This document shows positions 4,285-20,152 of a stretch of 64,000 nt of DNA, in pieces. The notes under the pieces are model-generated. The model saw nothing but the letters and a program-made list of their open reading frames with translations. It was not told the DNA's origin and did no database searches. The DNA is from a virus (Duplodnaviria > Caudoviricetes): IMG/VR virus record IMGVR_UViG_3300025840_004398; one strand, given 5' to 3'. The translations under genes and the position numbers were made by a program. How positions within the stretch are numbered: position 1 is the first letter of the stretch; each line of letters begins with the position of its first letter.

Positions 4285-4294
4285 TATATTTATA
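4285..4294 (+). promoter_or_regulatory. Putative late promoter box TATATTTATA
   Basis: Recurrent intergenic motif upstream of gene starts. Confidence 0.55.
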
Positions 4295-4315: not shown

Positions 4316-7300
4316 ATGAGTAAACTTTCACAATATCTCGTAGAGCAAATGCTCTTAGAGGATGTAAATCCTATTAAGAAGGTCGTAGTAATTTATGGAG
4401 GCAGATTTCAACCATTCCATAAAGGACACTATGGTACTTATCAACACCTTGTCAAAAAATTCGGTAAAGATAACGTTTTTATCAGTACTTCAAACAAAGT
4501 AGAAAAACCAAAATCACCTTTTAACTTCAAAGAAAAGGTTAAGATTATGACTACTATGTTCAATATACCTAAATCAAAAATAGTACAGGTAAAAAACAAC
4601 TATGCACCGAAAGAAATCCTCGATAAATACGATAAAGAAACAACCGCCTTCGTAACTGTTGTTGGTATGAAAGATAAAAGTAGATTAGGTGGAAAGTATT
4701 TTAGACCTTGGAAGGGTGAGGCAGAAGTTGGTTATGAAGAAGGTGGATATGTGTACGCTGCACCATCACAAACCAATTCAGTTAGTGGTACTGAAGTACG
4801 AAACGGAATGTCAATGGGTTCTGATGACCAAAAAGAAAACTTTTTTACAAATAGAGCATATGGAAAGTTTAATAAGACAATCTTTAAGATGATTACTGAT
4901 AAACTGAATGAAGGTATCGCGATTCCTAAAGAAATTATTGAAGAATGGCTCATCAATGAGAGTTCTAACTTAGGTGGAAATGGTGGAAGAGATATTGATG
5001 ATGGTCCAAACTTCTTTATACCAAATTACGATGTATTCCAACGAGTATCTGCAAAAAGAGCAGCTAAGATTGGATATGAAGTGGTAAATATGATTACTTC
5101 AAAAGAAATTGAAGATTATTATGACCACCCAACTTATCCTGATGGACCTGTTAAAGCAGTTTCCTTCTTCCCTGCAGGTGTTATCGGTAACTTATCATCA
5201 AACAACCAAGTTGATATCTATTCAAGTGGTGCATACTCACAATGGTTTAAACACGCAACTCGTAAAGCTGCTTTAGCAGGATATCAATTAGTAAATTCTC
5301 TTGCTTCCAAAGAAGATATTACCCAAGATAAAAAAGTTGCAGGTGATGGAGCAAAAGGTGATAAAGAATTAAAGGATGAATTCGAAAAATCAATAAACGA
5401 AGCAATTACCTTACCAGTATCAGTTGGTGATACTATCTTAACTGGTAGATTTAAGAATAAAAAGGTAGTTGTTAAATCAATTGGTAAAGATGAACATGGT
5501 ATGCCAACCATCAATGGTAAAAAAGTAGTAACTTTCAGATTAATGAAAGAAGGATTCGTTACTGAACTTGCTGGAACTGCAGTTAGATGTGAAAAATGTA
5601 ATCATTCTTGGGATATAGAAGAAGATGATGATGAAAAATATCTATGTCATTCTTGTGGATGGGATTCACAACAACAAGAGTACGATTATGATGCATTTGA
5701 TTCATGGGCAGAAAAAAGTGGATTGTTTGAATCAATAGAAGAAGAAATAGATGAAAGAGGTGGTAAACTAAGACCAGCAGATATCCTAAGAAGAAAAGCT
5801 GCAAGAGCTGGTAAGAGAGCACAAATAGCAAGAAGAAGAAAAAGAACAATGATGAGAAAAAAACCTCTTGCAAAACTTAAAAAGATTGCCTACAAGATGG
5901 CATACAGACAAGTTTATGATGAATTTGCCCAAGAATTGTTCCCAAATACACCTAAATCAGATTTAACTATTCAACAAACTAAAGTTATTCACAGAAATGT
6001 ACTTAGAAAGAAAAAAAGAGTACTAAAAAGAGCAAGATTTAGATTCTTACCTGCTTTACGAGATAAAGAGTCTGAAAAGTTTGGTGGAAAAACTAACATT
6101 TCATTTGATAAACCAAAAGAAACCAACGAACAACTTGCAAAAGGAATGAGTTTAAAGGATATTGCTGATAAACATGGAGTTTCGTTTGAAGAATTATCAA
6201 AAGAAGCTAAAAAAGGTGTTAAAGTTGAAATGGAACATACTTCAGATGTGAAACAAGCATATAATATTGCAAAAGACCACTTATTTGAGGACCCAAAATA
6301 CTACACCAAACTTGCAACCATAGAAGAACTTGCTCCGCATGGATATCCAGACCAAAAATGGATGGATAATCACGAAAAAGAACTCAAAAAGTTGAGAACC
6401 ACAATGGATAAACAACAAAAAGAGTTCTATAAAGAACATATAAACGAATCAAACCTCCTAATGGAAGGTGGTGCGTACGGACACATGAACCACCCATTCG
6501 ATACTGATATCAATTTAACCTTTGGACAACTAAAAGATATCGTAAACAGAGCACTAGAAGGTAACTTAGAGTTAGCAAGAGAGAAAACTGATGGTCAAGC
6601 TCTTGCAATTTCATGGAGAGATGGTAGATTAGTAGCAGCAAGAAACAAAGGACACCTAAAAAACAGAGGTGAGAACGCTTTAGACATCAAAGGAGTAGCT
6701 GATAAGTTCGCTGGTAGAGGTGAATTAGAAAAGGCTTATAACTTTGCAATGCAAGACCTTTCAAAAGCAATAAGTTCACTTACTGAAAAACAAAGAAACA
6801 AGATTTTTAGAGGTGGAAGTTGTTTTATGAACCTTGAAGTAATATATCCATCCAATGCAAACGTAATTCCTTATGGTCAAGCGTTACTTGTGTTCCATGG
6901 AACGATGGAATATAATGATGAGGGTGTTGCAATTGGTGAAAATCAAGAAGCAGCAACTATTTTAGCGGGTATGATTAAACAAGTTAATCAAAATGTACAA
7001 GACAATTATACTATACAAGGTCCTCCTGTAATAAAATTGCCAAAATCACAAAACCTTTCATCAAAAAAATCAATATATACATCTAAAATCTCTAAATTAC
7101 AAAAAGAATTTAAATTAAAGGACACCGATGGAGTTGGTAATTACCACCAATCATGGTGGGAACAGTGGGTAGACAAAAATTCACCTTCATCCTTAGATAA
7201 TAGAACAAAAATGGGTCTTGTTAAAAGATGGGCTTTCTATGATAAAGGATTTAGAATCGATAAAAATAACATAAAAGACGAAAAAACTTTAAATTGGGCA

Positions 7301-7669
7301 TTAAAAACGGATAAAGAGGACCAACAGAAGATTGCTAAGAAAAATTTGATGAAATTCGAAGATATTTTCTTAGGTTTAGGAGCAGAGGTATTACAATTTA
7401 CTTCATCAGTACTAACTGTGAACCCTGATAAGGCAGTTCGTGATATGAAGAAACGAATTGATAAGACAATAAAGGATGTTAGAAAATCAGGTGACCCAAA
7501 AAAGATAGAAAAACTTAAATTAGAACTTCAAAGATTAAAATCTATTGGTGGAAAGGACAAAATAGTACCTAATGAGGGTATTGTGTTTGTTTATAACGGA
7601 AGTACCTTTAAGTTAACAGGAACATTCGCTCCTGTTAATCAATTATTAGGTATTTTCATGAGAGGATAG
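4316..7669 (+). CDS. Multidomain protein: HxGH nucleotidyltransferase (cytidylyltransferase-like) + unknown domain + SH3/KOW-like module + Zn ribbon + basic module + VEMEH..DHL module + C-terminal ligase-like (KxDG) domain
   Basis: YGGRFQPFHKGH (4418-4429) and SGTEVR; CEKC...CHSC; GVKVEMEHT...AKDHL.EDPKYYTKL; EKTDG (6581-6595), LEVIY, EGIVF, FKLTG. ATG at 4316 preferred over the TTG at 4310. Confidence 0.75.
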   Translation: MSKLSQYLVEQMLLEDVNPIKKVVVIYGGRFQPFHKGHYGTYQHLVKKFGKDNVFISTSNKVEKPKSPFNFKEKVKIMTTMFNIPKSKIVQVKNNYAPKEILDKYDKETTAFVTVVGMKDKSRLGGKYFRPWKGEAEVGYEEGGYVYAAPSQTNSVSGTEVRNGMSMGSDDQKENFFTNRAYGKFNKTIFKMITDKLNEGIAIPKEIIEEWLINESSNLGGNGGRDIDDGPNFFIPNYDVFQRVSAKRAAKIGYEVVNMITSKEIEDYYDHPTYPDGPVKAVSFFPAGVIGNLSSNNQVDIYSSGAYSQWFKHATRKAALAGYQLVNSLASKEDITQDKKVAGDGAKGDKELKDEFEKSINEAITLPVSVGDTILTGRFKNKKVVVKSIGKDEHGMPTINGKKVVTFRLMKEGFVTELAGTAVRCEKCNHSWDIEEDDDEKYLCHSCGWDSQQQEYDYDAFDSWAEKSGLFESIEEEIDERGGKLRPADILRRKAARAGKRAQIARRRKRTMMRKKPLAKLKKIAYKMAYRQVYDEFAQELFPNTPKSDLTIQQTKVIHRNVLRKKKRVLKRARFRFLPALRDKESEKFGGKTNISFDKPKETNEQLAKGMSLKDIADKHGVSFEELSKEAKKGVKVEMEHTSDVKQAYNIAKDHLFEDPKYYTKLATIEELAPHGYPDQKWMDNHEKELKKLRTTMDKQQKEFYKEHINESNLLMEGGAYGHMNHPFDTDINLTFGQLKDIVNRALEGNLELAREKTDGQALAISWRDGRLVAARNKGHLKNRGENALDIKGVADKFAGRGELEKAYNFAMQDLSKAISSLTEKQRNKIFRGGSCFMNLEVIYPSNANVIPYGQALLVFHGTMEYNDEGVAIGENQEAATILAGMIKQVNQNVQDNYTIQGPPVIKLPKSQNLSSKKSIYTSKISKLQKEFKLKDTDGVGNYHQSWWEQWVDKNSPSSLDNRTKMGLVKRWAFYDKGFRIDKNNIKDEKTLNWALKTDKEDQQKIAKKNLMKFEDIFLGLGAEVLQFTSSVLTVNPDKAVRDMKKRIDKTIKDVRKSGDPKKIEKLKLELQRLKSIGGKDKIVPNEGIVFVYNGSTFKLTGTFAPVNQLLGIFMRG

Positions 7670-7686
7670 TGTTTTTCCAATTATTA

Positions 7687-7696
7687 TATATTTATA
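7687..7696 (+). promoter_or_regulatory. Putative late promoter box TATATTTATA
   Basis: Recurrent motif, 27 nt upstream of the ATG at 7724. Confidence 0.55.
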
Positions 7697-7723
7697 TATA
7701 AAATTATAACCTAATATATAACA

Positions 7724-8383
7724 ATGGGTAAAGAATTCAAAAAGAAATATATGCACCCAACTCGTAGAAAGTTGGTAGATATGGTTCATACTGGAAAGTA
7801 TGACAAAAATGCAACTATTGGGTACGAGGGTAAGAAAGAAACTCGTAAAGTAGGTGATGTGTGGGAAGATGAACACCACAGATACGAAAAGAAAGAAGGA
7901 TTCATTGTAAAGACAGGAAAAAACTCTGAAGAATTCCAAAAAATTAGAGAATATCTAAGACAAAAATCAGAATGTAAAAATTCTGATTGTAAAACCATAA
8001 AAATAACCAAAAAAGATAAACAATTTATCGAAAAAGGTGGTTATTGTATGAATTGTACAATTGATAGAGAACATATCATTAAAACATCCGGTCTTTGGAA
8101 AGAATATGAAACATATAAGGTAACTACTCGTATGATAATCTTCGGAAAGACGAAATTAGATGCATATAGACAATCACTTGATGATTTAAAAGAAGAATAC
8201 GAAATGGTTGGTTCCGAAGGAAAAGTTACAGAAACTTGGAAACTACCAAAACCTATTGAAGAAGTTCGTTCTGAGATAAACGAATTAATTTATAGTGGAA
8301 GTATAGAGATAGAGGTTTTAGAAAAAGACAGAACTCAAGCTTTCGAGAAGTTACGAGAAGCTAACATGGAGCATTATTTATGA
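7724..8383 (+). CDS. Hypothetical protein with a possible Zn-binding CxxxxC...CxxC motif
   Basis: 219-aa ORF with typical codon usage; ECKNSDCK...GYCMNC. Confidence 0.7.
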   Translation: MGKEFKKKYMHPTRRKLVDMVHTGKYDKNATIGYEGKKETRKVGDVWEDEHHRYEKKEGFIVKTGKNSEEFQKIREYLRQKSECKNSDCKTIKITKKDKQFIEKGGYCMNCTIDREHIIKTSGLWKEYETYKVTTRMIIFGKTKLDAYRQSLDDLKEEYEMVGSEGKVTETWKLPKPIEEVRSEINELIYSGSIEIEVLEKDRTQAFEKLREANMEHYL

Positions 8384-8754
8384 GTGGTACAAGATACACA
8401 AATGCGTTAATCGTTATCTGTATGACCTTTTTGGCATTCACCCTATTCAATGTCAGAGGTTTAAAAACAGATATTCAAGGTTTCAATGAAAGAATTGATA
8501 ACATTGGAGCTGAAATAGATTCTATCCAAACTATGAACAAGGAATTGGATGGTTTAATAGAATCGTTACACACAGAACTCGAACTAATCGATGGTGATAT
8601 AGATAGAGTACAAAACAACATTTTTACAATAAGGAGAAATACAGATGAGAAAAAGAATTCTGTTGATAATCTTACTATTAGTGAGCTTCAAGAGTTTTTC
8701 GCAAAACGATACGATAGTATCCTTACGAGAACCAGTAGCGAAACTAGTAATTAA
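8380..8754 (+). CDS. Membrane-anchored coiled-coil protein (i-spanin-like)
   Basis: N-terminal hydrophobic helix ALIVICMTFLAFTLFNV followed by about 90 aa of heptad-rich sequence. Confidence 0.55.
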   Translation: MSGTRYTNALIVICMTFLAFTLFNVRGLKTDIQGFNERIDNIGAEIDSIQTMNKELDGLIESLHTELELIDGDIDRVQNNIFTIRRNTDEKKNSVDNLTISELQEFFAKRYDSILTRTSSETSN

Positions 8755-9046
8755 AGATTTAATTGAAGGTGATGGTACTAAAGTAGAGTTAATCTCTACA
8801 TTGGAACTCTTAAAATTAGAACAAAAGAAAGTTGTTTTAAAAGATTCTGTTATTGGTACTCTAAACATCAAAGTTCTAAACTTAGAAGATATCATTGGTA
8901 AGAAAGATGAACAATTCAGTTTAGAAAGAGAGAAATCTGAACAATTAGAAAAAGAACTAAAAGGACAAAGAAGAAAAACCTTCTTGTATAAGGTAGGAAC
9001 CTACATTGGTGCAGGAGCACTTCTTGTTTTATTAGGAACAAACTAA
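8645..9046 (+). CDS. Signal-peptide, coiled-coil, C-terminal hydrophobic-helix protein overlapping the upstream gene by 110 nt (spanin-partner-like)
   Basis: MRKRILLIILLLVSFKSFS|Q signal peptide, coiled coil, C-terminal YIGAGALLVLLG. Confidence 0.55.
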   Translation: MRKRILLIILLLVSFKSFSQNDTIVSLREPVAKLVIKDLIEGDGTKVELISTLELLKLEQKKVVLKDSVIGTLNIKVLNLEDIIGKKDEQFSLEREKSEQLEKELKGQRRKTFLYKVGTYIGAGALLVLLGTN

Positions 9047-9047
9047 T

Positions 9048-10640
9048 ATGGCTAAACAAAGTTTAAAGGAAATAATAAAAATTGAGTACCAGAAGTGTGC
9101 ATCAGACCCAATATACTTCATGAAGAAGTATTGTATGATACAACATCCTGTTCGTGGTAAAATTCCTTTTCACTTATACCAATTCCAAGAAAGAACCCTT
9201 ACTCAATTTAAAGACCATCGATATAACATTATCCTCAAATCAAGACAGACGGGTATTTCAACTTTAACTGCTGGATTTTCATTATGGAAGATGTTATTTA
9301 ACCAAGATTTTAACGTATTGGTAATTGCAACTAAACAAGAGGTTGCGAAAAACTTGGTTACCAAGGTTCGAGTGATGAATCAGTATTTACCTTCTTGGTT
9401 AAAACAAACAACAGTAGAAGATAACAAACTATCCTTACGATACTCCAATGGTTCTCAGATTAAAGCAACATCTGCAGCAGGTGATGCTGGTCGTTCTGAA
9501 GCACTATCCTTATTGGTATTTGATGAGGCTGCATTCATCGATAAGATTGAAGAAATTTGGGTATCTGCACAATCTACCTTATCAACGGGTGGTAATGCAA
9601 TTATCTTATCTACTCCAAATGGGGTGGGTAACTTCTTCCACAAAACTTGGGTGGGTGCAGAAGATGGTACAAACACATTCAACACTATTCGTTTACATTG
9701 GTCAGTTCATCCAGAACGAGACCAAACATGGAGAGATGAACAAGAGGTACTATTAGGACCAAAAGGAGCAGCACAAGAATGTGATTGTGATTTCGTAAGT
9801 TCGGGTGATACTGTTATCGACCCACAACTTCTAATGTTCTACAAAGAATCATTCGTACAAGAACCGATGGAGAAAACAGGTTTCGATGGAAACCTTTGGA
9901 AATGGGAATACCCAAACTATCAGAAATCTTATATGGTCGTTGCCGATGTTGCTCGTGGAGATTCTGCCGATTTCTCGGCATGTCATGTAATCGATATAGA
10001 AGAATCCTCACAAGTTGCTGAATATAAAGGTAAGTTAGATACAAAAGATTTTGGAAACTTCCTTGTATCTCTTGCTACTGATTACAACAACGCTCTACTT
10101 GTAATTGAAAACGCGAATATTGGTTGGGCAGTAATCCAACAAGTAATTGATAGAGGGTATGGAAATCTTTTCTATATGAGTAAAGATTTAAAGTATGTAG
10201 ATGTAGAAAATCAGTTACATAACAAATACAATAGAGAAGAAAGAAACATGACAGCAGGTTTCTCTACAACTTCTAAAACACGACCCCTAATTATCTCAAA
10301 GTTGGAACAGTATGTTAGAGAAAAAGAAATTACCATTCGTTCTTCAAGAACCATAGATGAGTTATTTACATTTATATGGAATGGTAATCGTGCAGAGGCA
10401 ATGAGAGGATATAACGATGATTTAACGATGTCTTTAGCAATTTCACTATGGGTAAGGGATACTGCACTCAGATTAAGACAAGAGGGAGTTGATTTAACTA
10501 AACAAGCATTGGGTGGTATTGGAGCACACTCATTAGATGTTGCAGGAATGGGATTTGGTGGTAATTCAGCATTAGAAGAAAATCCTTGGAATATGAGAGT
10601 TGGTGATAGAAATGAAGATTTAACTTGGTTAATTAAATAA
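9048..10640 (+). CDS. terL: Terminase large subunit (T4 gp17-like)
   Basis: ILKSRQTGIST (Walker A variant), LLVFDEAAF (Walker B), STPNG, nuclease ADVARG.S.DFSA, NDDL.M. Confidence 0.95.
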   Translation: MAKQSLKEIIKIEYQKCASDPIYFMKKYCMIQHPVRGKIPFHLYQFQERTLTQFKDHRYNIILKSRQTGISTLTAGFSLWKMLFNQDFNVLVIATKQEVAKNLVTKVRVMNQYLPSWLKQTTVEDNKLSLRYSNGSQIKATSAAGDAGRSEALSLLVFDEAAFIDKIEEIWVSAQSTLSTGGNAIILSTPNGVGNFFHKTWVGAEDGTNTFNTIRLHWSVHPERDQTWRDEQEVLLGPKGAAQECDCDFVSSGDTVIDPQLLMFYKESFVQEPMEKTGFDGNLWKWEYPNYQKSYMVVADVARGDSADFSACHVIDIEESSQVAEYKGKLDTKDFGNFLVSLATDYNNALLVIENANIGWAVIQQVIDRGYGNLFYMSKDLKYVDVENQLHNKYNREERNMTAGFSTTSKTRPLIISKLEQYVREKEITIRSSRTIDELFTFIWNGNRAEAMRGYNDDLTMSLAISLWVRDTALRLRQEGVDLTKQALGGIGAHSLDVAGMGFGGNSALEENPWNMRVGDRNEDLTWLIK

Positions 10641-10643
10641 CTC

Positions 10644-10653
10644 TATATTTATA
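10644..10653 (+). promoter_or_regulatory. Putative late promoter box TATATTTATA followed by an AGGAG RBS (10658-10662)
   Basis: Recurrent motif directly after the terL stop. Confidence 0.55.
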
Positions 10654-10669
10654 CATTAGGAGAATAAAT

Positions 10670-11059
10670 ATGATATCATTACAAGAATTACTTAACGAAG
10701 AAATACACACAGAAGAATATATCGTAGAAAATTATCACGATATTAAAGAATTCTGTGAATTTATGAAAGAATACAAAGATGATATGAATGAGGCAGAGTA
10801 TCAAGGTAGAACAGTAAAACTTGGTAAACCAATGAGAGGTGATGTCAAGAAATTCAAAGTATATGTTAAAAATCCCCAAGGAAACGTTGTAAAAGTAAAT
10901 TTTGGACATGGTGGAACTTCTGCAAAAAAGCAAGGAGAGAAAACAATGAAAATCAAAAAGTCCGACCCTGAAAGAAGAAAGGCATTCAGAGCAAGACACA
11001 ACTGTGATAATCCAGGTCCAAGACACAAAGCAAGATATTGGTCTTGTAGAGCATGGTAA
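10670..11059 (+). CDS. Small basic virion-associated hypothetical protein with an N-terminal Glu-ending tag
   Basis: AGGAG RBS; acidic N-terminus then basic domain KKFKVYVK...KVNFG...RRKAFRARHNC...KARYWSC. Confidence 0.75.
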   Translation: MISLQELLNEEIHTEEYIVENYHDIKEFCEFMKEYKDDMNEAEYQGRTVKLGKPMRGDVKKFKVYVKNPQGNVVKVNFGHGGTSAKKQGEKTMKIKKSDPERRKAFRARHNCDNPGPRHKARYWSCRAW

Positions 11060-11101
11060 AAACAAAATTAATAAAGGTTATAAATTAAAAAACAATAGAA
11101 A

Positions 11102-12832
11102 ATGGCAGATACTTCATTTTTTGGGAGATTAACAAAACTTTTTCGTTCTCAAGCGGTAGTTACTATCGATAAGGATGGAAAACGTAACGTCTTTGATGGT
11201 GATGAAAGACAACAAACTAACTTGTCATCACTTAGAGATAGATACACCAAATTACAAAAATCTTTCTATGAACAAGCAGGTGGTGCTCAATCAATGGCAT
11301 ACCAACAAGTTCGTAGAGAAGTTTTTCGTGATTACGATGCAATGGATAATGACCCTATCCTTGCTTCTGCACTTGATATCTACGCAGATGAATGTACATT
11401 AAAGAATGAATTTGGAGATGTGATGTTAATTCAGTCAGATAATCCAAAAGTTCAAGAAATTCTTAACAACTTATTCTACGATATTCTTAATGTAGAGTTC
11501 AACCTATGGCCTTGGACAAGAAACTTGGTAAAGTATGGAGATTTCTTCTTAGGTTTAGAAGTTGCAGAAGGTAAAGGTATCGTAAACGTTACTCCACATT
11601 CTGTTTACAATACAGAAAGATTAGAAAGAACAGACCCATCAAATCCAAATTCAGTAAAGTTTAAAATTACTGAGGACCCGAATGGTAAAGAAGAATATGA
11701 AAACTTTGAAATCGCTCACTTTAGATTGTTAGCGGATACTAACTGGTTACCTTATGGTAAATCCATGATTGAGAATGGAAGAAGATTGTGGAAACAATTA
11801 TCTCTAATGGAAGATGCTATGTTAATTCATAGAATCATGAGAGCACCAGAAAAAAGAGTTTTCAAAATTGATATTGGTAATATCCCACCAACAGAAGTGG
11901 ATAACTATATGCAAAGAATCATCAACAAGATGAAGAAAGTTCCTTTCATCGATAGAAATACTGGTGATTATAACTTAAAGTACAATATGCAAAACCTAAC
12001 AGAAGATTTCTATCTTCCTGTTCGTGGTGGTGATAGTGGTACATCTATTGATAATCTCGCAGGTTTGGAGTACGCAACAATCGAAGATATTGATTACTTA
12101 AAGAACAAAATGTTTGCAGCTCTTAAAATTCCAAAAGCATATTTAGGATATGAAGAAAATGTAAATGGTAAAGCAACTCTTGCTGCAGAAGATGTGAGAT
12201 TTGCAAGAACAATCGAAAGAATCCAAAGAACACTTATATCGGAGTTATCTAAAATCGCTATTGTTCACTTATACGCACAAGGTATTCAAGATGCAGAAAT
12301 GACAAACTTTGAATTAAAACTTGTAAACCCATCTACGATTTACGAACAAGAAAGAGTAAACCTTTGGTCAGAAAAAGTTAGATTGGCACAAGATATTGTT
12401 GGTTTAAATATGTTATCTAAAGATTGGGTATATGAAAACATCTTTAAAGTTGCTGAAGGTGAACAAGATGAAGAAAGAACTAAAATCCTTGATGATATTA
12501 AAGATAGATACAGATATCGTATGATTGAAGATGAAGGTAACGACCCTGCAATGGATGATGAAGATGATGTAGATGATATTGAAGAATCTTTAGAGTCACT
12601 AAAACAAGAAATCAAAGATAAGGGTGGTAGACCAAGAGAAGGAAATACATATGGTAAAGATAAACACCCATATGGTAGAGACCCTTTAGGTGATAAAGAA
12701 AGAACTTCTAAAAGAAGTAGAACTTCTGAAGAAAAGGCTATAAAAATTATTAATGGTATAGCGGCAAAACGTAAATATTTACATGAAATGAAAGATATGT
12801 TAGATGAGTCTAACATTCTTGATAACGACTAA
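11102..12832 (+). CDS. gp20: Portal protein (T4 gp20-like)
   Basis: YGKSMIE..R..WKQL.LMEDAMLIHRIMRAPEKRVF.ID.GN.P, EDFYLP.RGG..GT.I..L.G, LKIPK.YL. Confidence 0.95.
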   Translation: MADTSFFGRLTKLFRSQAVVTIDKDGKRNVFDGDERQQTNLSSLRDRYTKLQKSFYEQAGGAQSMAYQQVRREVFRDYDAMDNDPILASALDIYADECTLKNEFGDVMLIQSDNPKVQEILNNLFYDILNVEFNLWPWTRNLVKYGDFFLGLEVAEGKGIVNVTPHSVYNTERLERTDPSNPNSVKFKITEDPNGKEEYENFEIAHFRLLADTNWLPYGKSMIENGRRLWKQLSLMEDAMLIHRIMRAPEKRVFKIDIGNIPPTEVDNYMQRIINKMKKVPFIDRNTGDYNLKYNMQNLTEDFYLPVRGGDSGTSIDNLAGLEYATIEDIDYLKNKMFAALKIPKAYLGYEENVNGKATLAAEDVRFARTIERIQRTLISELSKIAIVHLYAQGIQDAEMTNFELKLVNPSTIYEQERVNLWSEKVRLAQDIVGLNMLSKDWVYENIFKVAEGEQDEERTKILDDIKDRYRYRMIEDEGNDPAMDDEDDVDDIEESLESLKQEIKDKGGRPREGNTYGKDKHPYGRDPLGDKERTSKRSRTSEEKAIKIINGIAAKRKYLHEMKDMLDESNILDND

Positions 12833-12854
12833 ATTACCTTAACTTTTATAAATT

Positions 12855-12864
12855 TATATTTATA
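12855..12864 (+). promoter_or_regulatory. Putative late promoter box TATATTTATA
   Basis: Recurrent intergenic motif. Confidence 0.55.
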
Positions 12865-12889
12865 ATAGAGTAATTTTATATATTTGTAA

Positions 12890-13774
12890 TTGGAAATTAT
12901 TAAAATGAGAAAAATTAGACATTCAAAATTTAAAAATACGGGTTTTCTGTTTGAAATACTAACCCGTCAGATTACACTCGAAGTCTTGAATGGTGGTGAC
13001 GAAAAAGCTAAAGAAATCGTAAGAGAATTCTTTGGTGGAAAAACTGAACTTGCCAAAGAACTTCGTTTGTTTAATCTATTAATTAACGAAAAATATAACT
13101 CAGAAACCAAAGCTGAAAAATTTATTGATGCTATATTAGAAGCACACACTAAAATCAATTACTCAAAACTTAAAAGAGAAAAATTCAATCTTGTTAAATC
13201 AATTAAAGAAACTTTTGAGATTGATAATCTTTTATCTTCACCTGTTACCAATTATAAAATACTTGCTTCTATTCATAAATTATTCGAAGGTAAAAAGAAC
13301 GATATTCTTGATGTAAAAGATATATTTGATTCTAAACTTACTATCGTTGAACATATTTCCAACTCAACTCCATCTCTTAAACAAAAAGAGGATAAACTTG
13401 TTGAAGATTACAAAAAACAAGAAAAAGATTTAAGATTACTCACTTACAAAATTCTTGTAGAAACTTTCAACAACAAATATACTAATTTAAATGATTCACA
13501 AAAATCATTATTAAGAGAGTATATTAACAACATTACTAATACATCGAAATTCGGTGAGTACTTTGAGAAAGAATTGATTAGTACAATCACAGAATTACAC
13601 GATTTGTATAAAGGAATGAAGGATAAGATTACAAAAATTAAATTGCGTGAAACTATTAATGTTTTGAAAAAACAAAAACTCGGTAAAAAAATTACTGATG
13701 AACAAGTTTCAGCTTTAATGATGTCTTATGAATTAGTAAAGGAGATAAAAAGTGTCAATGGAAAGATATCTTAA
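12890..13774 (+). CDS. Helical hypothetical protein in the head module (start may be MRKIRHSKF at 12905)
   Basis: 294-aa ORF between portal and prohead protease. Confidence 0.75.
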   Translation: MEIIKMRKIRHSKFKNTGFLFEILTRQITLEVLNGGDEKAKEIVREFFGGKTELAKELRLFNLLINEKYNSETKAEKFIDAILEAHTKINYSKLKREKFNLVKSIKETFEIDNLLSSPVTNYKILASIHKLFEGKKNDILDVKDIFDSKLTIVEHISNSTPSLKQKEDKLVEDYKKQEKDLRLLTYKILVETFNNKYTNLNDSQKSLLREYINNITNTSKFGEYFEKELISTITELHDLYKGMKDKITKIKLRETINVLKKQKLGKKITDEQVSALMMSYELVKEIKSVNGKIS

Positions 13775-14462
13775 TGAACTTATCGATGAACTAATTCAAG
13801 AAATTGAACAAGAATTAGATGAAACAAATGCAACAGGCAATATTGCTGGGTATAATGTGCCTGGTGCTTTTTCTAATGGTGGTTCTAAAGATAAAAAAAG
13901 AAAGAAAAAAATCTCAACTCAATTTGGAATGAAAATTGTTGGTAAAATCGATGAAGATGGAATCAACGAAGCAATAACAAAAATCTCTTCTTCTAACTTT
14001 AAAAAACTTGAAGCAGGTATTAAGAAAATAAACCCAAGAATTAAAATTTCTTTAAACTCATCTGCACCTGGTGGATTTGAAATCCAAATACCAGATGATA
14101 GTAAATGGGAACTACATACTGATAAAGTTCAACAACTAACTACCAAAATTACAGGTGACCATAGAAATGGTAGAATCTTTTACGAAGGTATCAATGAAGC
14201 TAAAGTAAAAAGACCAGTAAATCGTTGGTTAGAATTAAAAAACGATGAAACCATGCATCCTCACAAGAAGATGGCAATGGGTTTAAAAGAATTAAAATAC
14301 CAATTACGAGAAGTAGAGAAGTTTTTCTCTTGGTACAATAAAATCAAAACCATGAACGAGTTGGACTCTCAGAACTATTGGAAAAGAACAAATAATCATA
14401 TTTATAAGATAAAGGAGAGGTTAATCAACATCGCCAAAACTATAAAGGAAATCGAAAAATGA
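13752..14462 (+). CDS. Head-module hypothetical protein with several (L/I)xE-delimited segments
   Basis: AGGAG upstream; ELDE|TNATGNIAGY, GINE|AIT, GINE|AKV. Confidence 0.7.
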   Translation: MSMERYLNELIDELIQEIEQELDETNATGNIAGYNVPGAFSNGGSKDKKRKKKISTQFGMKIVGKIDEDGINEAITKISSSNFKKLEAGIKKINPRIKISLNSSAPGGFEIQIPDDSKWELHTDKVQQLTTKITGDHRNGRIFYEGINEAKVKRPVNRWLELKNDETMHPHKKMAMGLKELKYQLREVEKFFSWYNKIKTMNELDSQNYWKRTNNHIYKIKERLINIAKTIKEIEK

Positions 14463-14779
14463 AAATATCAAGAGATAGATTAAAAGAAATCGTTAGAGAA
14501 GTGATGGTTGAAGAAACCGAATATCAAGCATTCTTCAAAAAAGCATTAGAAAAAGCTGGAAAATCAATTCCACAAATGTCTGATGAAGAAAAGAAGGCAT
14601 TCTTTAATAAAATCGATGCTACTTGGAAAGGTAGAGGAGAAAAGAACGAAAGATTTGGTAGAGGGCACGAAGGACCTACATTTGGTTCTGCAGATGAACA
14701 AGTATCTGAATTAACAGATGCTCAGAAAAAACTACCACCAGCACTTCAAAAGGCAATTGAGAAAAAAGAAAAAAAATAA
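14459..14779 (+). CDS. Head-module hypothetical protein
   Basis: 106 aa, 4-nt overlap with the upstream stop (ATGA). Confidence 0.7.
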   Translation: MKISRDRLKEIVREVMVEETEYQAFFKKALEKAGKSIPQMSDEEKKAFFNKIDATWKGRGEKNERFGRGHEGPTFGSADEQVSELTDAQKKLPPALQKAIEKKEKK

Positions 14780-14956
14780 ATGACAAAAAGACAATTGTAT
14801 GATATTATCAATGAAGAAATCGTTAATGTTAAAAAAGGCAAGATTAACGAGGAAATCACGAATGAAGATGAAAAACTCATTCGTGAATTGATACGTCAAG
14901 AGGTATCTGCAATTTTCTTTGATTTGTTTAAGAAACGTAAAATGTGGGGAGCATAA
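14780..14956 (+). CDS. 58-aa hypothetical protein (MTKRQLYDIINEEIVNVKKGKINEEITNEDEKLIRELIRQEVSAIFFDLFKKRKMWGA); not in the supplied ORF track
   Basis: Translated by hand; abuts the upstream stop, and its TAA overlaps the next ATG (TAATG). Confidence 0.7.
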   Translation: MTKRQLYDIINEEIVNVKKGKINEEITNEDEKLIRELIRQEVSAIFFDLFKKRKMWGA

Positions 14957-15546
14957 TGAGTAACTTACTAATAGAAACCAGATTATTCGAAGGTAGAGTA
15001 AACGAAGATAGTAGTGGAAGAACTATTGTTAAGGGTATTTTACAAAGAGCTGGTGCAGAAAATCAAAATGGGAGAATCTATCCAAAGGATATTCTTGAAA
15101 GAGAAGCTCAAAAGTACGAAACTCTTATCAAAGAAAGACGTGCTCTTGGTGAATTAGACCATCCTGATTCTTCAGTCATCAACCTAAAGAACGTATCTCA
15201 CAATGTAAGAGAGATTCATTGGGATGGTGATGATTTAGTTGGTACAGTAGAGATATTACCTACACCAAGTGGAAACATCTTAAAAGAATTATTAAAAGCA
15301 GGTATCCTATTAGGTATATCATCTCGTGGTATGGGTTCAGTAGAACCACTATCAGGTGGTAAAGTACAAGTAGGAGAAGATTTTGAGTTAATAGGTTGGG
15401 ATTTTGTATCTAACCCATCAACTCATGGTGCTTTCATGACACCAATGAACGAATCGATTAATAAACAATTAAAAGAACAAGTTGTTTGTGGCGATTATTG
15501 TAAAGCACAAGATATGATGAGAGAAATTATAACTGAATTAAGTTAA
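14956..15546 (+). CDS. gp21: Prohead core protease (T4 gp21-like)
   Basis: LLIE N-terminus, G.LQRA...NQNGR.YP, ALGELDHP, VSH, GISSRG.GS, DFVSNPS; start moved to the ATG at 14956. Confidence 0.93.
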   Translation: MSNLLIETRLFEGRVNEDSSGRTIVKGILQRAGAENQNGRIYPKDILEREAQKYETLIKERRALGELDHPDSSVINLKNVSHNVREIHWDGDDLVGTVEILPTPSGNILKELLKAGILLGISSRGMGSVEPLSGGKVQVGEDFELIGWDFVSNPSTHGAFMTPMNESINKQLKEQVVCGDYCKAQDMMREIITELS

Positions 15547-15548
15547 TT

Positions 15549-15737
15549 ATGGCATTTTCAATACAAGACTATATGTCTAAAAATAAAATTAAGTTAGGAA
15601 CTGTTACCAAAGAAGTTGGTGATAATCCCTATAAAGGTTACAATGATATTCGTAAAACGAATTATGATGTAAAACTAACTGAAGATGGGAAGTTAGACCT
15701 TTACACACACAAAACTGAAACAAAAACATATAAATAG
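15549..15737 (+). CDS. 62-aa hypothetical protein
   Basis: ORF 2 nt after the protease stop with typical codon usage. Confidence 0.6.
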   Translation: MAFSIQDYMSKNKIKLGTVTKEVGDNPYKGYNDIRKTNYDVKLTEDGKLDLYTHKTETKTYK

Positions 15738-15745
15738 GAGTAAAT

Positions 15746-15889
15746 ATGTCAGATTTAACATTAGGTGGTTCAAAGACACATCAAGGAAATAACACAACAC
15801 ATACAGATTCATCTATTGGTGGAAGTAAGACACATAAGGGATATCAGGCATCTCATTCCCCTTCCACACTTGGTGGTTCAAAAAAGTAA
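15746..15889 (+). CDS. 47-aa peptide with three (L/I)GGSK repeats (MSDLTLGGSKTHQGNNTTHTDSSIGGSKTHKGYQASHSPSTLGGSKK); not in the supplied ORF track
   Basis: Translated by hand; AGGAG at 15736-15740; fills the gap between 15737 and 15909. Confidence 0.7.
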   Translation: MSDLTLGGSKTHQGNNTTHTDSSIGGSKTHKGYQASHSPSTLGGSKK

Positions 15890-15908
15890 TTTTAAATAGG
15901 ATAGGATT

Positions 15909-16712
15909 ATGATTAAATTAGGTGGATTAGTAACGTTAAAACCAATCAATGAGGTAGAATATACCCACATTGGATATGGTAAATATAAAGAAAAGGGTAA
16001 AGAAAAAGACCCTCAAGCAGTAACCTATCAAAAAGATGATAATGGTAAATTCACACCTATTTCATCACACGCAGCGGCAGCGAAGGGAGGTGATTCCTCT
16101 GCCGGAAAAGATAAGCCTAAAGTGAATATCTTCGATAAACCTAAAAAAGATAAAGAAGAACCTAAGAAAGATGGTGGTGATGACATATCAACTCCTAATT
16201 CAGTAGCAGGAACTGGTCAAGCAGACCCTAATGTTAATAAGGCAGTTCGTAAAGCAGCTCAGAAAGCTGGAATTACTCCAGGAAAATTAGGTAAAGAAGA
16301 ATACGAAAAGAAAATGGCTCAAGCAGCATATGAAGCCCTAACTGATGCTAACTTCCATACTGAAGCAAGATGGTTGATTGCAGATTTAGAAGGTAAACCA
16401 GAGTTAAGAGAGAAGCCAGAATATCCATCCTTTGATGATAAAGATTATGATGAAAAAATAAAAGCAATTAGAGATAAGTACTATTCTCAATATGCAGATG
16501 ATGTTGATGAAGATGCATATGAATTAGGAGTTAAATCATCTCAAGAAGCTGGATGGGCTGGTGCTACTGCAATTGAAGGTTTGGTATTCGATTTGAAAAT
16601 GAATGGTTCACATAAATTAGCAAACACAATATTAAAATCTTTCAAAGATGCAAATTCATCTCGTAACGAAGGAAGATTAAAAATAGGAAACTTATTACCA
16701 GAGGTAAATTAA
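15909..16712 (+). CDS. Head-module hypothetical protein with an N-terminal tag (MIKLGGLVTLKPINE)
   Basis: 267-aa ORF, charged low-complexity segments. Confidence 0.75.
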   Translation: MIKLGGLVTLKPINEVEYTHIGYGKYKEKGKEKDPQAVTYQKDDNGKFTPISSHAAAAKGGDSSAGKDKPKVNIFDKPKKDKEEPKKDGGDDISTPNSVAGTGQADPNVNKAVRKAAQKAGITPGKLGKEEYEKKMAQAAYEALTDANFHTEARWLIADLEGKPELREKPEYPSFDDKDYDEKIKAIRDKYYSQYADDVDEDAYELGVKSSQEAGWAGATAIEGLVFDLKMNGSHKLANTILKSFKDANSSRNEGRLKIGNLLPEVN

Positions 16713-16713
16713 A

Positions 16714-17100
16714 ATGATAAAATTAAAATCACTTATTCAAGAAGGAACTCATTCTCATGTTGGTATTATTGAACCAAATGGAAAGATTACTTCTGTTTAT
16801 ACTCATTACGATGGTTATCCTGAAAACATGAAACCTGCAATTAAACACCATTTTAAATCTGATAAAGATGTAAAAAATTATATCAAAAAAGGTGGTGCTA
16901 CTGGTATTTACAAAGACAAAGAAGTAGATAGATACTATGGAAGTGGGGGATTTGTTGCAAATGGAAGAGTAAATAATATTAGTGATTATATGCAACAAGC
17001 AGATGAAAAAGGTGGAGCCGATTGGATTTATCTTTATAATACTGCTAAAAAGAAATGGTTTTATGGTAAATATGGAAAACCACTAAAACCACTATACTAA
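16714..17100 (+). CDS. Small protein with a YxHYDGYP motif behind an N-terminal tag (MIKLKSLIQE)
   Basis: GTHSHVGII...SVYTHYDGYP...GADWIYLY motifs. Confidence 0.75.
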   Translation: MIKLKSLIQEGTHSHVGIIEPNGKITSVYTHYDGYPENMKPAIKHHFKSDKDVKNYIKKGGATGIYKDKEVDRYYGSGGFVANGRVNNISDYMQQADEKGGADWIYLYNTAKKKWFYGKYGKPLKPLY

Positions 17101-17113
17101 AAGGAGAATAGAA

Positions 17114-17872
17114 ATGAAATTAACCCAACTCATAAAAGAAAATGAAGAAAGACCTTTATCTACTGAGGTAAAGAGACACTTCCTTGAAATCGTTTCTACT
17201 TACAACAAGTACCAAGAATCGATGGATAGAAAATCTGATATTATCAAAGTAGCAGAAACCCTTGGTGGTATTACTGAAGCTGCTAGAACACTTGCAATCA
17301 AAGAAGCAGGAGATTGGTTCGATAAACACACAGTTAAGAGAAACATGAGTGAATTGGATAAGTTGGGTAAACAATTCGATAAAGTTGCTCTTGAGGCTCG
17401 TGCACTTGACCAAAGAATGGCAGGATTGTACGAAGATATGGGACATATCCTTTCAAGATACTATAAGTTTGGTGAAATCACAGAGGACCAAATGAAACAA
17501 AGATTAGGTATCAAAGAATCTAAAGATGGTGGTTGTGGATGTGGATGTGGCTGTGGTGGTAACAAATCAGTAAACGAAGAAACAATCACAGAGCAACCAG
17601 TAATGATTTCTAAAAGAACAGAAAGTGGAAACATTGTAACTACTTTAAAAGAAGTATCTGATTTAAACGAAGAAGAAGTTAAACTTTATGAGTTTGGTTT
17701 AAAGGTTGAAAAAGTATTGATGAGTGAAAAATCTTGTCCAACTGATGCTTCTAAATGGTCTTACTACAAAGGACAAGCTAAAAAGAAATTCGATGTTTAT
17801 CCATCTGCATACGCTAATGGTTGGGCTGCAAAACAATACAAATCAGCTGGAGGTGGTTGGAAAAACTGTTAA
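17114..17872 (+). CDS. Head-module protein: helical domain, GCGCGCGC segment, C-terminal basic YPSAYANGW module
   Basis: AGGAG RBS; MKLTQLIKE tag; KFDVYPSAYANGWAAKQYK..GGGW. Confidence 0.8.
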   Translation: MKLTQLIKENEERPLSTEVKRHFLEIVSTYNKYQESMDRKSDIIKVAETLGGITEAARTLAIKEAGDWFDKHTVKRNMSELDKLGKQFDKVALEARALDQRMAGLYEDMGHILSRYYKFGEITEDQMKQRLGIKESKDGGCGCGCGCGGNKSVNEETITEQPVMISKRTESGNIVTTLKEVSDLNEEEVKLYEFGLKVEKVLMSEKSCPTDASKWSYYKGQAKKKFDVYPSAYANGWAAKQYKSAGGGWKNC

Positions 17873-17882
17873 GGAGAGAACA

Positions 17883-19787
17883 ATGGCATCAGTAGTAGGT
17901 AAAACAATTTTTTCAGATGGTAAAGGTAAACTGTTCTTCGGTTATTACAAAACCGATGATGCTGTTGAATTTGTAGATTACAAAACTTGGAAGAAACTTT
18001 CTTTCAAAGATGTATCCAAAGGTGATACCAACAAAGAACGAGTAATCAAAGCAATCGTAAAGAACCAAAAACAATTCAATAAGAAAGTTGATTTCAATAT
18101 GTGGGCTAAGAAACAAAAAAGAAGTTTCGAGGACACTATGGATTGGTTTATCCAAAATGGTTGGATTAATAACGTTACCAAAAGAGGAATTAAAGAATCT
18201 GTTGATGTATTATCAATAAACGAAATATTAGTAATAGTAGATAAGTTTGATAAAAGAAAACAAGATTACGGTAAAATTTATTGGAAAGATGGTGGTAGAG
18301 GACCAGGTGATGGTGATATCAACAAGGCAAAAAAAGAATTTGCTAAATTGAGTAAGAAACACAAAGGTTTATCTCTCGTATCAGTTGGTAGAAATAGCAG
18401 GATGTATGATGTAATGGATGAATCAGTAAACGAAGCAATGAAACCATCACAAGTTCGTTCAGCAATTTCAAAAGTTAAAAAAGGACTAATGAGAAAGTGG
18501 AAACAAAAAGGTGGATACGAAAACTTTGGACAAAAAGAACTTTCTCAAATGAAAGATAAGTTTGATTACAATCCATATGGTTCACCTGATGAAAGACAGA
18601 TTTCAAAGATGTTAGATGGATTTGATGATTGGGCAATGAACTACGATGGTAATATGAGAGAAGGTAAAAAAAGATTCAAAAGACAAGATGGTATTGGTAA
18701 AGCAAAATACACTATCTCTTACCACGATGGAAAAAAGAAACACAAAGATGGTAGTGATTTCTTTGATATGAAAATCTTCAAAAACAAAAAAGATTTAAGT
18801 GATTTTGTTGGTTCACTTGTAAAACAAGGATATAAACTAACAAATGAATCAGTAAACGAAGTTAAATATGATACTGCTCTTGCTGACTTTAATAAAGAGT
18901 TAGAAAAAAACTCTGAAGTTAGAAAAGCAGCAAAACATTACAAAAAATCTACAAAAGATGTTGTAAAGGCATTGCAATCAAAAATTAAAGTAAATAGATA
19001 TAGTGATAAATCTATTAAACAAGTATCTATTGATTATAAAGAAGATGGGCCACTTTCAAGTAAAGTATCTATAAAATTATCTAAAGATTACAAACAAAAT
19101 GAATCAGTAAACGAAGATAGAAATTCTAATATGTTCTATGTTCTTTACCAAAAGAAAGGTGTCTTTGGTAAACCTGCAGCAGCTGGATATAAAGATAGAA
19201 AAGATGCTGAAAAATTTGCTAAGAGTTTAGGAAATAATCACAACACAATGATTCTTGATAAACAATCAATGAAGAATGTAAAAGGTGTTGATGTAAACGA
19301 ATCAGCAAGTAAAGAAGCAATGGGTATTGCAGCATTAACTGGTACTCGTGGTTCTGCGGTTCAAGATTTCATTGATAAAAATAGAATCAATAGTAAGAAA
19401 TTATTTAAAGCATTAAAATCAGCAAACCTACAAGGTAGAATTAACTTCGCTAATGGATTAGCTGGTAAACCTGGTAATCCAAACGCAAAACTTACAATCA
19501 AACTTTTTGGTGAATCAGTAAACGAAGCTAAATTTGGTTACAAAGACTCTAAAGCTTCATACATCAAGAAACACAAAGATGAGTATAAACAAGCAGAGAA
19601 AATGAATAATGGGAATGAAAAACGTTTCTACGATTTGTTACAACAAATGGAAGATAAAGTAGGACATCCTAAAACTATGTTATTTATCTCTAATGCACTT
19701 CGTGGTTATGGTGTTGATATGTACAAAGACCCAAAGATTAAAAATCCACAAGATGCACAAGAGGCTCTTTTCTTATTGAGTAAATAA
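17883..19787 (+). CDS. 634-aa putative polyprotein of about 8 small basic modules separated by ESVNE-type linkers
   Basis: AGGAG at 17872-17876 supports the ATG at 17883 rather than 17724; ESVNE x4 plus related linkers. Confidence 0.8.
   Translation: MASVVGKTIFSDGKGKLFFGYYKTDDAVEFVDYKTWKKLSFKDVSKGDTNKERVIKAIVKNQKQFNKKVDFNMWAKKQKRSFEDTMDWFIQNGWINNVTKRGIKESVDVLSINEILVIVDKFDKRKQDYGKIYWKDGGRGPGDGDINKAKKEFAKLSKKHKGLSLVSVGRNSRMYDVMDESVNEAMKPSQVRSAISKVKKGLMRKWKQKGGYENFGQKELSQMKDKFDYNPYGSPDERQISKMLDGFDDWAMNYDGNMREGKKRFKRQDGIGKAKYTISYHDGKKKHKDGSDFFDMKIFKNKKDLSDFVGSLVKQGYKLTNESVNEVKYDTALADFNKELEKNSEVRKAAKHYKKSTKDVVKALQSKIKVNRYSDKSIKQVSIDYKEDGPLSSKVSIKLSKDYKQNESVNEDRNSNMFYVLYQKKGVFGKPAAAGYKDRKDAEKFAKSLGNNHNTMILDKQSMKNVKGVDVNESASKEAMGIAALTGTRGSAVQDFIDKNRINSKKLFKALKSANLQGRINFANGLAGKPGNPNAKLTIKLFGESVNEAKFGYKDSKASYIKKHKDEYKQAEKMNNGNEKRFYDLLQQMEDKVGHPKTMLFISNALRGYGVDMYKDPKIKNPQDAQEALFLLSK
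18420..19526 (+). repeat. Four exact in-frame copies of GAATCAGTAAACGAA (ESVNE) at 18420, 18846, 19101 and 19512; a 14-nt copy at 17565
   Basis: Read directly; spacings 426, 255 and 411 nt. Confidence 0.9.
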
Positions 19788-20152
19788 TGAAACTCCAAGA
19801 ACTATTTACAGAAATTATCGAAGAAAACAGATGTATCCATTGTGGAAACATTGTTAACGAAGATTTAAAAAATTGGTTTAAATCTAAATGGGTAAACATT
19901 GGTAAAAAAGTTGGTGGAAAGCATCCACCTTGTGGAACAAGTGGTTCAAAGAGTGGATACGCTAAATGTGTTCCAGCTGCAAAAGCAAAAACTATGAGTA
20001 AGAAAGAAAAAGAATCTGCAACTCGTAGAAAAAGAGCAGCACAAAACAAGGCAGGAAGAGGTGGAGTAAATTCACCAGGTCAAGGTAAAAAACCAATAAA
20101 CGTTTCAACACATACTAAAGGAAGAAAATCAGGAACTGGTAAAGGTTCTTAA
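19787..20152 (+). CDS. Small basic Cys-containing protein with an N-terminal tag (MKLQELFTE)
   Basis: CIHC, EDLKNWFKSKWV, PCG...YAKCVP motifs; very Lys-rich. Confidence 0.75.
   Translation: MKLQELFTEIIEENRCIHCGNIVNEDLKNWFKSKWVNIGKKVGGKHPPCGTSGSKSGYAKCVPAAKAKTMSKKEKESATRRKRAAQNKAGRGGVNSPGQGKKPINVSTHTKGRKSGTGKGS

Follow-up and report, generated by a model that had tools for sequence, protein, structure and literature searches.

A mosaic nucleotidyltransferase-ligase polyprotein of T4-like aquatic phages as a candidate packaged RNA-repair cargo

Which task is served by a mosaic of enzymes encoded directly in front of the packaging genes of a T4-like phage? The question is raised by an open reading frame (ORF) at 4316-7669 (+ strand; mosaic polyprotein P0001, 1117 amino acids) in 64,000 nucleotides of the caudoviricete virus record IMGVR_UViG_3300025840_004398. 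This whole stretch, the window, represents the virion module of a T4-like phage with a G+C content of ~33%. The original prediction described a packaged polyprotein that releases two nucleotidyl-transfer enzymes on infection; the observation is confirmed, and the interpretation is supported in part. The identities of the two terminal domains, an N-terminal HxGH nucleotidyltransferase (NTase) and a C-terminal ligase-type domain, are held with high confidence. RNA repair is the rather probable function. As a whole, an RNA-repair polyprotein that is packaged and cut by the prohead protease is the best explanation and is given about an even chance. The result is a variation on phage RNA repair, on packaged cargo of the T4 type and on polyvalent proteins, and its basis is a ligase family that was not recognised before and is abundant in aquatic viromes.

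The RNA-ligase-like covalent nucleotidyltransferase domain comprises amino acids 718-1117 (6467..7666, +). Motif I is represented by K757-T-D-G, motif III by E841, motif IV by E1087-G and motif V by K1099. The motifs quoted in the original prediction were all located, in this domain EKTDG (756), LEVIY (840), EGIVF (1087) and FKLTG (1098), in the N-terminal domain HKGH (35) and SGT (157). In an alignment of 21 relatives with identities down to 39%, the K, D and G of motif I, the E of motif III, the H of the FH strand (motif IIIa), the EG of motif IV and the K of motif V are invariant. The structural model calculated from this alignment has a predicted local distance difference test score (pLDDT) of 91.1 and a predicted template-modelling score of 0.85. 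It places E841 on a strand at residues 125-132, FHG at 146-155, EG at 377-382 and K1099 at 385-389, in the canonical motif order. T4 Rnl1, fungal Trl1-LIG and archaeal Rnl3 were the best Foldseek matches of the model in the PDB, and DNA ligases were also among the matches. According to the model, the domain has the covalent nucleotidyltransferase (ligase) fold with all catalytic motifs, in agreement with the ligase-like domain proposed at the outset; catalysis is predicted.

Sequence comparisons do not place the domain in a described family. Amino acids 700-1117 have no Pfam match at E <= 1 and no match in NCBIfam or PHROGs. The domain profile found no ligase among PDB sequences except LigA around KxDG at a non-significant E of 3.3. 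Matches of this profile to eS6 ribosomal proteins (E 7e-4, on a Lys-rich helical stretch) were taken as compositional, because the fold search returned only ligases. The domain starts with a conserved GGAYGHMxHPFD segment, carries a helical insert of ~170 amino acids (model residues 201-371) between motifs IIIa and IV, and ends ~18 amino acids past motif V. The Rnl1 family model (RNA_lig_T4_1) does not recognise it, and the all-helical domain following motif V is absent. We read the domain as a new, unrecognised family within the ligase superfamily. If this is true, a structurally distinct and metagenomically very abundant branch, missed by current family libraries, is added to the RNA/DNA ligase superfamily.

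The NTase domain of the HIGH superfamily, NMNAT/NadM-like, extends from amino acid 16 to 199 (4361..4912, +). It scores above the gathering threshold of the Pfam family CTP_transf_like (PF01467; 36.2 bits, cut-off 21, E 8e-9). The HKGH motif is located at amino acids 35-38, and the second nucleotide-binding motif (ISxTxxR type) is SGTEVR at 157-162. H38, S157, T159 and R162 are invariant among 34 relatives. A profile of the 34 N-terminal domains of the family matched in the PDB best the M. jannaschii NMNAT (MJ0541, 1f9a; E 1.8e-7) and the Francisella NadM (2qjt; E 4.6e-6); GRFQPFHKGH is identical in both and SGTE(V/I)R matches. The AlphaFold2 model (pLDDT 91.7) has a Rossmann-like fold and retrieved NaMNAT, PPAT and NMNAT structures with Foldseek at E ~3e-6. 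The NCBIfam equivalogs align with the first ~60 residues only, at best with 23-28 bits against cut-offs of 127-449. Pfam, the profile comparison and the fold search thus agree with the predicted HxGH nucleotidyltransferase and name NMNAT as closest. The domain is an NMNAT-like member of the HxGH superfamily, for which NMNAT activity itself is a prediction. A complex prediction for the NTase and ligase domains gave a score of 0.00 in a run without controls, which speaks neither for nor against binding.

The ligase domain defines a large phage family. An exhaustive search yielded 1823 clusters at 50% identity. The proteins have 400-1930 amino acids, and nearly always the domain forms their very C-terminal end. 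A word-based search retrieved >1600 closely related proteins. Many of them stand alone with ~414 amino acids; in others, an HD, cupin, DUF5661 or NTase domain precedes the ligase. IMG/VR holds >524 loci. A megablast search of the polyprotein gene against 50,697 phage records gave no match. Among 185,579 species genomes, a 10-kb contig of a metagenome-assembled genome was the only match, and the family is essentially phage-only. This contig (SHWS01000026.1, from a Baikal assembly labelled Pelagibacteraceae) may be a phage contig mis-binned into a bacterial genome. A 50.8-kb ENA contig (L005) has an N-filled scaffold gap at 8780-8854 inside a homologous polyprotein gene. Because of this gap, the gene caller predicted a truncated 'stand-alone' ligase of 393 amino acids; the short entries of the family in databases are thus in part artefacts.

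The architecture of the relatives points to RNA repair. Pfam domains in 36 long relatives comprise the NTase (30), DUF5661 (6), PolyA_pol with an RNA-binding domain (5), an AAA_33/Zeta kinase (4), HD (4), ROS/MucR (3), and one each of a 2H phosphoesterase, KTI12 and a SprT-like domain. Inteins are present (Hint, Intein_splicing) in some of the polyproteins P0122-P0263; others have ROS/MucR, SprT-like or cupin modules. The best 80 of the >524 IMG/VR loci were evaluated for synteny. All 80 share the order NTase, repeat, small module, (Zn ribbon), (basic module), (DUF5661), (HD), (PolyA_pol), ligase, TerS-like, TerL, portal and S77. The upstream end was resolvable in 40 loci: 30 have a single ORF, seven a stand-alone ligase gene and three partial fusions. 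On a 189-kb contig, the locus is split into five overlapping genes for NTase-DUF5661, a CCA-adding enzyme (PolyA_pol), a kinase, an HD protein and the ligase. The Microcystis phage Mel-JY01 has a minimal two-domain NTase-ligase form of 639 amino acids. Kinase, phosphoesterase, ligase and an enzyme restoring the tRNA 3'-end constitute a heal-and-seal pathway, and RNA (tRNA) repair is therefore favoured over DNA joining. The suggestion of a repair module gained strong support from these relatives, which combine a CCA-adding enzyme, a polynucleotide-kinase-like P-loop kinase, HD and 2H domains in the same polyprotein or operon. KptA/Tpt1 was not found in relatives. Rnl1-family proteins were not found either, with a model that matched no control genome, so that this absence is uninformative. 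A literature search for NMNAT-RNA-ligase fusions returned nothing relevant.

Between the two enzymes, the ORF encodes five small modules. Homology coverage and BLAST breakpoints against 267 relatives place boundaries near amino acids 199, 215, 362, 417 and 605, and the middle modules occur independently in other proteins; the unrelated modules of the initial description are truly modular. The first one (216-362; 4961..5401, +) has an internal two-fold repeat and no family match. It recurs after the NTase in most IMG/VR loci extending far enough upstream, and L(I/V)NE or LIKE precedes it in relatives. A small shuffled module of ~50 amino acids follows (363-417; 5402..5566, +), which occupies many positions in 41 relatives. 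Glu is immediately in front of it in 41/41 and a hydrophobic P3 in 35/41. This pattern holds at every position of the module, including directly after short N-terminal leaders such as MSQEFISE. The third module (418-480; 5567..5755, +) is a CxxC...CxxC zinc ribbon with an acidic tail and weak matches to Zn-ribbon, HypA and MJ0042_CXXC; F(V/I)xE precedes Zn-ribbon modules in relatives. A highly basic module with a net charge of +29 (481-605; 5756..6130, +; no family match) and a DUF5661 module (606-671; 6131..6328, +; PF18905, E 1.1e-12) complete the middle part. HD modules, found in relatives, are preceded by (V/I)xE-GLKE.

Is the mosaic cut? The linker motifs named in the original prediction are all present, LNE at 197, INE at 213, 360 and 709, VTE at 415, IDE at 478, TNE at 603 and LME at 715. 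The polyprotein contains 17 [L/I]xE against 10.2 expected from composition, by itself a modest excess. The placement of hydrophobic-x-Glu at module boundaries across relatives is far from chance, and the BLAST breakpoints lie near the same junction sites. The last linker, amino acids 672-717 (6329..6466, +), ends with INE-SNLLME and is modelled disordered (pLDDT 31). It is homologous to the 15-amino-acid leader of stand-alone ligase genes. Directly before the domain start GGAYGH, P3 is L or I in 235/241 relatives (97.5%) and P1 is E in 210/241 (87%). Stand-alone ligase genes begin with MIRLxKxLNEVLLKE, and five fused ORFs retain this whole leader, Met included, as in-frame internal linker.

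The N-terminus of the polyprotein carries a leader as well (amino acids 1-15; 4316..4360, +) with [L/I]xE at 8-10 and 13-15. The capsid-targeting rule of T4, experimentally defined, covers 10 residues with targeting positions 4 and 7 and processing positions 8 and 10 (PMC9026906). The leader MSKLSQYLVE agrees with this rule (L4, Y7, L8, E10), and it is conserved among the N-termini of the family. Three ORFs in the window start with a strict targeting-rule leader (4316, 10670, 16714) against 0.04 in shuffles. A loose rule is matched by six ORFs against 0.21 in shuffles, all within 4316-20152, the head module. Leaders of the capsid-targeting-like type are also found on small head-module ORFs at 10670-11059, 16714-17100, 17114-17872 and 19787-20152, beginning with MISLQELLNE, MIKLKSLIQE, MKLTQLIKE and MKLQELFTE, respectively. 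By their leaders, these four are candidate internal or injected proteins. The ORF at 17724-19787 in the same head module encodes a second polyprotein of unrelated small basic modules, in which four identical ESVNE linkers delimit five pieces. Judged from sequence, junctions and leaders fit capsid targeting and cutting after [L/I/V]xE by an S77 protease.

Such a protease is encoded downstream. Sugar-nucleotide enzymes are encoded upstream of the polyprotein ORF. On its 3' side follow a TerS-like gene, the large terminase, a T4-type portal, a Peptidase_S77 protease and a Gp23-type major capsid protein (E 4e-76). The conserved TerS-like gene (7724..8383, +) lies directly 3' of the polyprotein ORF, and follows the ligase in 80/80 IMG/VR loci. 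The large terminase is located at 9048..10640 (+; PHROG phrog_2, E 8e-49). The T4 gp21-type prohead serine protease (14944..15546, +; PF03420, E 9.5e-28) is the candidate processing enzyme. A promoter-like decamer, TATATTTATA, is present at 4285..4294 (+), and since it stands 22 nt 5' of the polyprotein ATG, the gene carries a promoter-like signal common to virion genes. The window contains 14 copies against 0.94 expected, on the + strand only, nearly all directly 5' of virion, structural or packaging genes. They start at 4285, 7687 (the copy of the TerS-like gene), 10644, 12855, 20166, 23595, 26655, 31850, 32368, 35717, 42156, 59956, 62692 and 63292. It may serve this group of phages as a late promoter element.

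Relatives of the two enzymes may exist in cyanomyophages. Foldseek matches of the ligase model among viral models comprise close relatives labelled only 'cytidyltransferase-like' and, distantly, a 591-amino-acid S-PM2 protein (E 1.4e-5, TM-score 0.42). This protein, S-PM2d138, is a reversed fusion: a ~400-amino-acid N-terminal region, with KWDG around residue 50 and EGFVAIVDGKAVK close to its end, is followed by the NTase. In P-TIM40 (gp182/gp183) and S-SZBM1 (gp141/gp140), a ligase-like protein and the NTase are encoded by adjacent genes. The cyanophage NTases align with the family NTase profile at hhalign probabilities of 89-90% (S-SZBM1 gp140 89%, E 2.4e-6). The P-TIM40 cytidylyltransferase has 561 matching phage records. 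The function of the cyanophage 'cytidylyltransferase' has been called unclear (PMC9146016), and the searched literature treats it as an auxiliary metabolic gene. In CsCl-purified S-SZBM1 virions, this protein, gp140, was detected with two peptides (emPAI, the exponentially modified protein abundance index, 0.26) together with its neighbour gp139 (four peptides) (PMC9146016). gp140 starts with the capsid-targeting-like MRFRQFIIE. The proteome gives a weak but real indication that the NTase lineage can be virion-associated. The hypothetical gp139 (457 amino acids; L091 2989-4362, minus strand) adjoins the NTase gene and has no similarity to the middle modules of the polyprotein. An N-terminal motif H-x-x-H-x-x-D is common to the cyanophage ligase-like proteins and the polyprotein ligase domain. 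The former, including the S-PM2 protein (L089 2768-4543), have H-L-E-H-L-E-D few residues past the Met; the latter has G-H-M-N-H-P-F-D within amino acids 718-729, right after the putative cleavage site.

Cargo status is inferred from the junction statistics, the leader similarity, the shared promoter-like motif, the invariant synteny with packaging genes and the one virion proteome of a distant homologue. For protease processing together with packaging, the chances appear evenly balanced. Several observations weigh against a packaged RNA-repair polyprotein, and those on packaging come first. In the AlphaFold2 model, the leader forms a helix on the NTase domain (pLDDT 75-86), and it may for this reason belong to the NTase fold. 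The Glu at the junctions might cap the modules structurally and not mark sites for a protease. The S-SZBM1 NTase homologue is very distant, with only two peptides in virions, and the ligase-like gp141 is absent from the virion proteome list (PMC9146016). Alignments of the ligase profile by hhalign with P-TIM40 gp182 and gp184, S-PM2d138 and a three-sequence cyanophage profile were not significant, with only the motif IV-V stretch aligned; the cyanophage ligase link consequently rests on Foldseek, motif inspection and architecture.

The helical leader favours the main rival, which is itself judged rather unlikely: a cytoplasmic, unprocessed multidomain RNA-repair enzyme like fungal Trl1 or bacterial Pnkp, made late and acting in the producing cell. 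The hydrophobic-x-Glu junctions would then be linker or domain-cap features and the terminase adjacency historical. Uncut multidomain RNA-repair enzymes are well known, e.g. the Trl1 LIG-KIN structures among the fold matches. T4 Rnl1 has a late morphogenetic role in tail-fibre attachment without being cargo, and one Rnl1 homologue in the Foldseek search of viral models is so annotated. However, a mere linker fails to explain the L/I and E frequencies at P3 and P1 in a disordered segment. The uncut enzyme also leaves unexplained the stand-alone leader kept inside fused ORFs, the like leaders on several small head-module ORFs, the second xNE-punctuated polyprotein in the same head module and the distant NTase homologue detected in purified virions (PMC9146016).

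Concerning the substrate, the window ORF consists of NTase, five small modules and ligase, without kinase, HD or CCA-adding modules; alone, it could seal only 5'-P/3'-OH breaks. No tRNA genes were found in the window. A canonical DNA ligase (PF01068, PF01653) is missing from two relatives rated complete by CheckV (276 and 289 kb), so a DNA-joining role has to be considered. The C-terminal domain would in this case be a phage DNA ligase replacing the missing T4 gp30 type and sealing nicks in replication or before packaging, and the NMNAT-like domain would secure the NAD+ supply of this ligase or of the host LigA. The adjacency of the gene to TerS and TerL, the location of the cyanomyophage pair among the replication genes uvsX, gp41 and primase, and the DNA ligases among the fold matches are in line with this proposal. 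Set against the healing enzymes of the relatives, it is considered quite improbable.

Do the two enzymes share a task? Two functionally unrelated counter-defence cargos are a further, improbable explanation. Here, the NMNAT-like domain would restore NAD+ consumed by NADase defences (NARP2-like), and damage by nucleases would be mended independently by the ligase. In sequence, the N-terminal domain is indeed closest to NMNATs of the NadM or archaeal type, and polyvalent proteins combine unrelated activities (PMC5512222). In one complete relative, an Rnl2-type ligase is encoded close to NadV. On the other hand, NMNAT needs NMN, normally from NadV, and phage NadM is reported to co-occur always with NadV (PMC9503650). 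A NadV-type NAPRTase (PF04095) was found neither in Mel-JY01 nor in the complete relative G001; it is present in the complete relative G002. The idea of a NAD-restoring counter-defence, part of the original prediction, is weakened by the missing NadV in Mel-JY01 and in one of the two complete relatives. The NTase-ligase pairing is kept in the minimal two-domain form, and distant phage groups have it in either domain order or as neighbouring genes, which argues for a shared task. In G002 (IMGVR_UViG_3300012347_000377, 289 kb), the NadV-type NAPRTase and the Rnl2-type RNA ligase are encoded ~4 kb apart (9715-10542 and 14034-14618) and far from the polyprotein; the pair looks like a separate NAD+/RNA-repair island.

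For the packaged RNA-repair polyprotein, the following course is proposed. The phage would express late a mosaic with two constant enzyme ends and a variable accessory middle. The C-terminal ligase most likely seals broken RNA, presumably tRNA, via lysyl-AMP on K757. In relatives, the middle would supply end healing and 3'-end restoration by the P-loop kinase, the HD phosphohydrolase and the CCA-adding enzyme. The NMNAT-like domain most likely makes NAD+ or a related dinucleotide that supports the ligase or repair reaction. The polyprotein may enter the prohead through its 10-residue capsid-targeting-like leader. There, the S77 prohead protease would cut after the Glu of the [L/I/V]xE junctions and set separate enzymes free; the mature ligase would start at GGAYGH. 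Gene fusion or fission would be functionally neutral, because processing would yield the same mature products. Together with the DNA, the enzymes would be delivered into the next host, and repair would therefore be available as soon as infection begins.

A wider reading is offered tentatively, with less than an even chance. A very abundant aquatic T4-like clade would package a complete RNA-repair kit, cut at [L/I]xE and injected to pre-empt tRNA-cleaving defences, with NTase and ligase as a coupled unit. The kit would contain the RNA ligase of the new family and the NMNAT-like NTase, in relatives also the kinase, the HD phosphoesterase and the CCA-adding enzyme, synthesised either as one polyprotein or as individual proteins with a tag each. 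The obligatory NTase-ligase pair would include the cyanophage 'cytidylyltransferase' and its neighbour. In the coupled unit, locally synthesised NAD+ or another dinucleotide might, for instance, serve to charge the ligase. If packaging and injection are true, the principle of T4 internal proteins and Alt is extended from single small anti-restriction proteins to enzyme pathways in the form of protease-cut polyproteins. Injected RNA repair would represent a new timing of counter-defence against anticodon nucleases and other RNA-targeting immunity. For the cyanophage 'cytidylyltransferase', the polyprotein family offers a concrete, testable partner and pathway.

The system resembles several known ones. 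RNA repair in T4 (Pnkp and Rnl1) and the ligases Rnl1, Rnl2 and Rnl5 share with the C-terminal domain the nucleotidyltransferase fold, the motifs I, Ia, III, IIIa, IV and V in order, and the encoding by phages; the structures compared were T4 Rnl1 (2c5u/5tt6), NgrRnl (5cou/6vt3), REL1 (1xdn) and Trl1-LIG (6n67). A kinase and a phosphoesterase for end healing are also associated in polyprotein relatives, where the phosphoesterase is of the HD type, not HAD or calcineurin-like. In contrast to known RNA ligases, the domain has no sequence match to ligase families in Pfam, NCBIfam, PHROGs and the PDB. Its helical domain of ~170 amino acids is inserted before motif IV, not appended after motif V, and it has the conserved N-terminal GGAYGHMxHPFD and the constant pairing with an HxGH NTase. 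The N-terminal domain has the GRFQPFHKGH and SGTEVR motifs and the fold of archaeal-type NMNAT/NadM (1f9a, 2qjt), whereas it misses all NCBIfam equivalog cut-offs by far and lacks a Nudix domain. In phages with NadM-NadV NAD+ salvage, NadM is accompanied by its salvage partner; here, the NTase is fused to a ligase, and the NadV partner is often missing.

The cyanomyophage core 'cytidylyltransferase' (annotated 'cytitidyltransferase', T4-GC0190) and its upstream neighbour likewise combine an HxGH NTase with a ~400-amino-acid protein, which has KxDG near residue 50 and EGFV...K at the very end. The cyanophage pair is related very distantly and differs in the reversed order or separate genes, in the location among replication genes instead of beside the terminase, and in the lack of variable middle modules. 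The T4 internal proteins IPI-III and Alt have in common with the polyprotein the 10-residue leader pattern (4 and 7 hydrophobic, 8 L/I, 10 E), a gp21-family protease and a gp23-type capsid. Like Alt, the putative cargo is an enzyme. It would be a polyprotein of up to ~1900 amino acids with many internal cuts, and its putative activities are RNA repair and nucleotide transfer instead of anti-restriction or ADP-ribosylation. Polyvalent proteins (Iyer et al., 2017; PMC5512222) consist of many disparate, shuffled domains as well, are encoded next to head and packaging genes and have been proposed to be injected with the DNA. Their hub domains (zincin-like metallopeptidase, ArdC-N, MuF) are not among the Pfam matches of the 36 long members, in which one SprT-like domain is the only one of metallopeptidase type. 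The 2H domains of polyvalent proteins are reported never to associate with RNA ligases (PMC5512222). In the polyprotein family, the invariable anchor is a ligase, and the prohead protease would do the processing.

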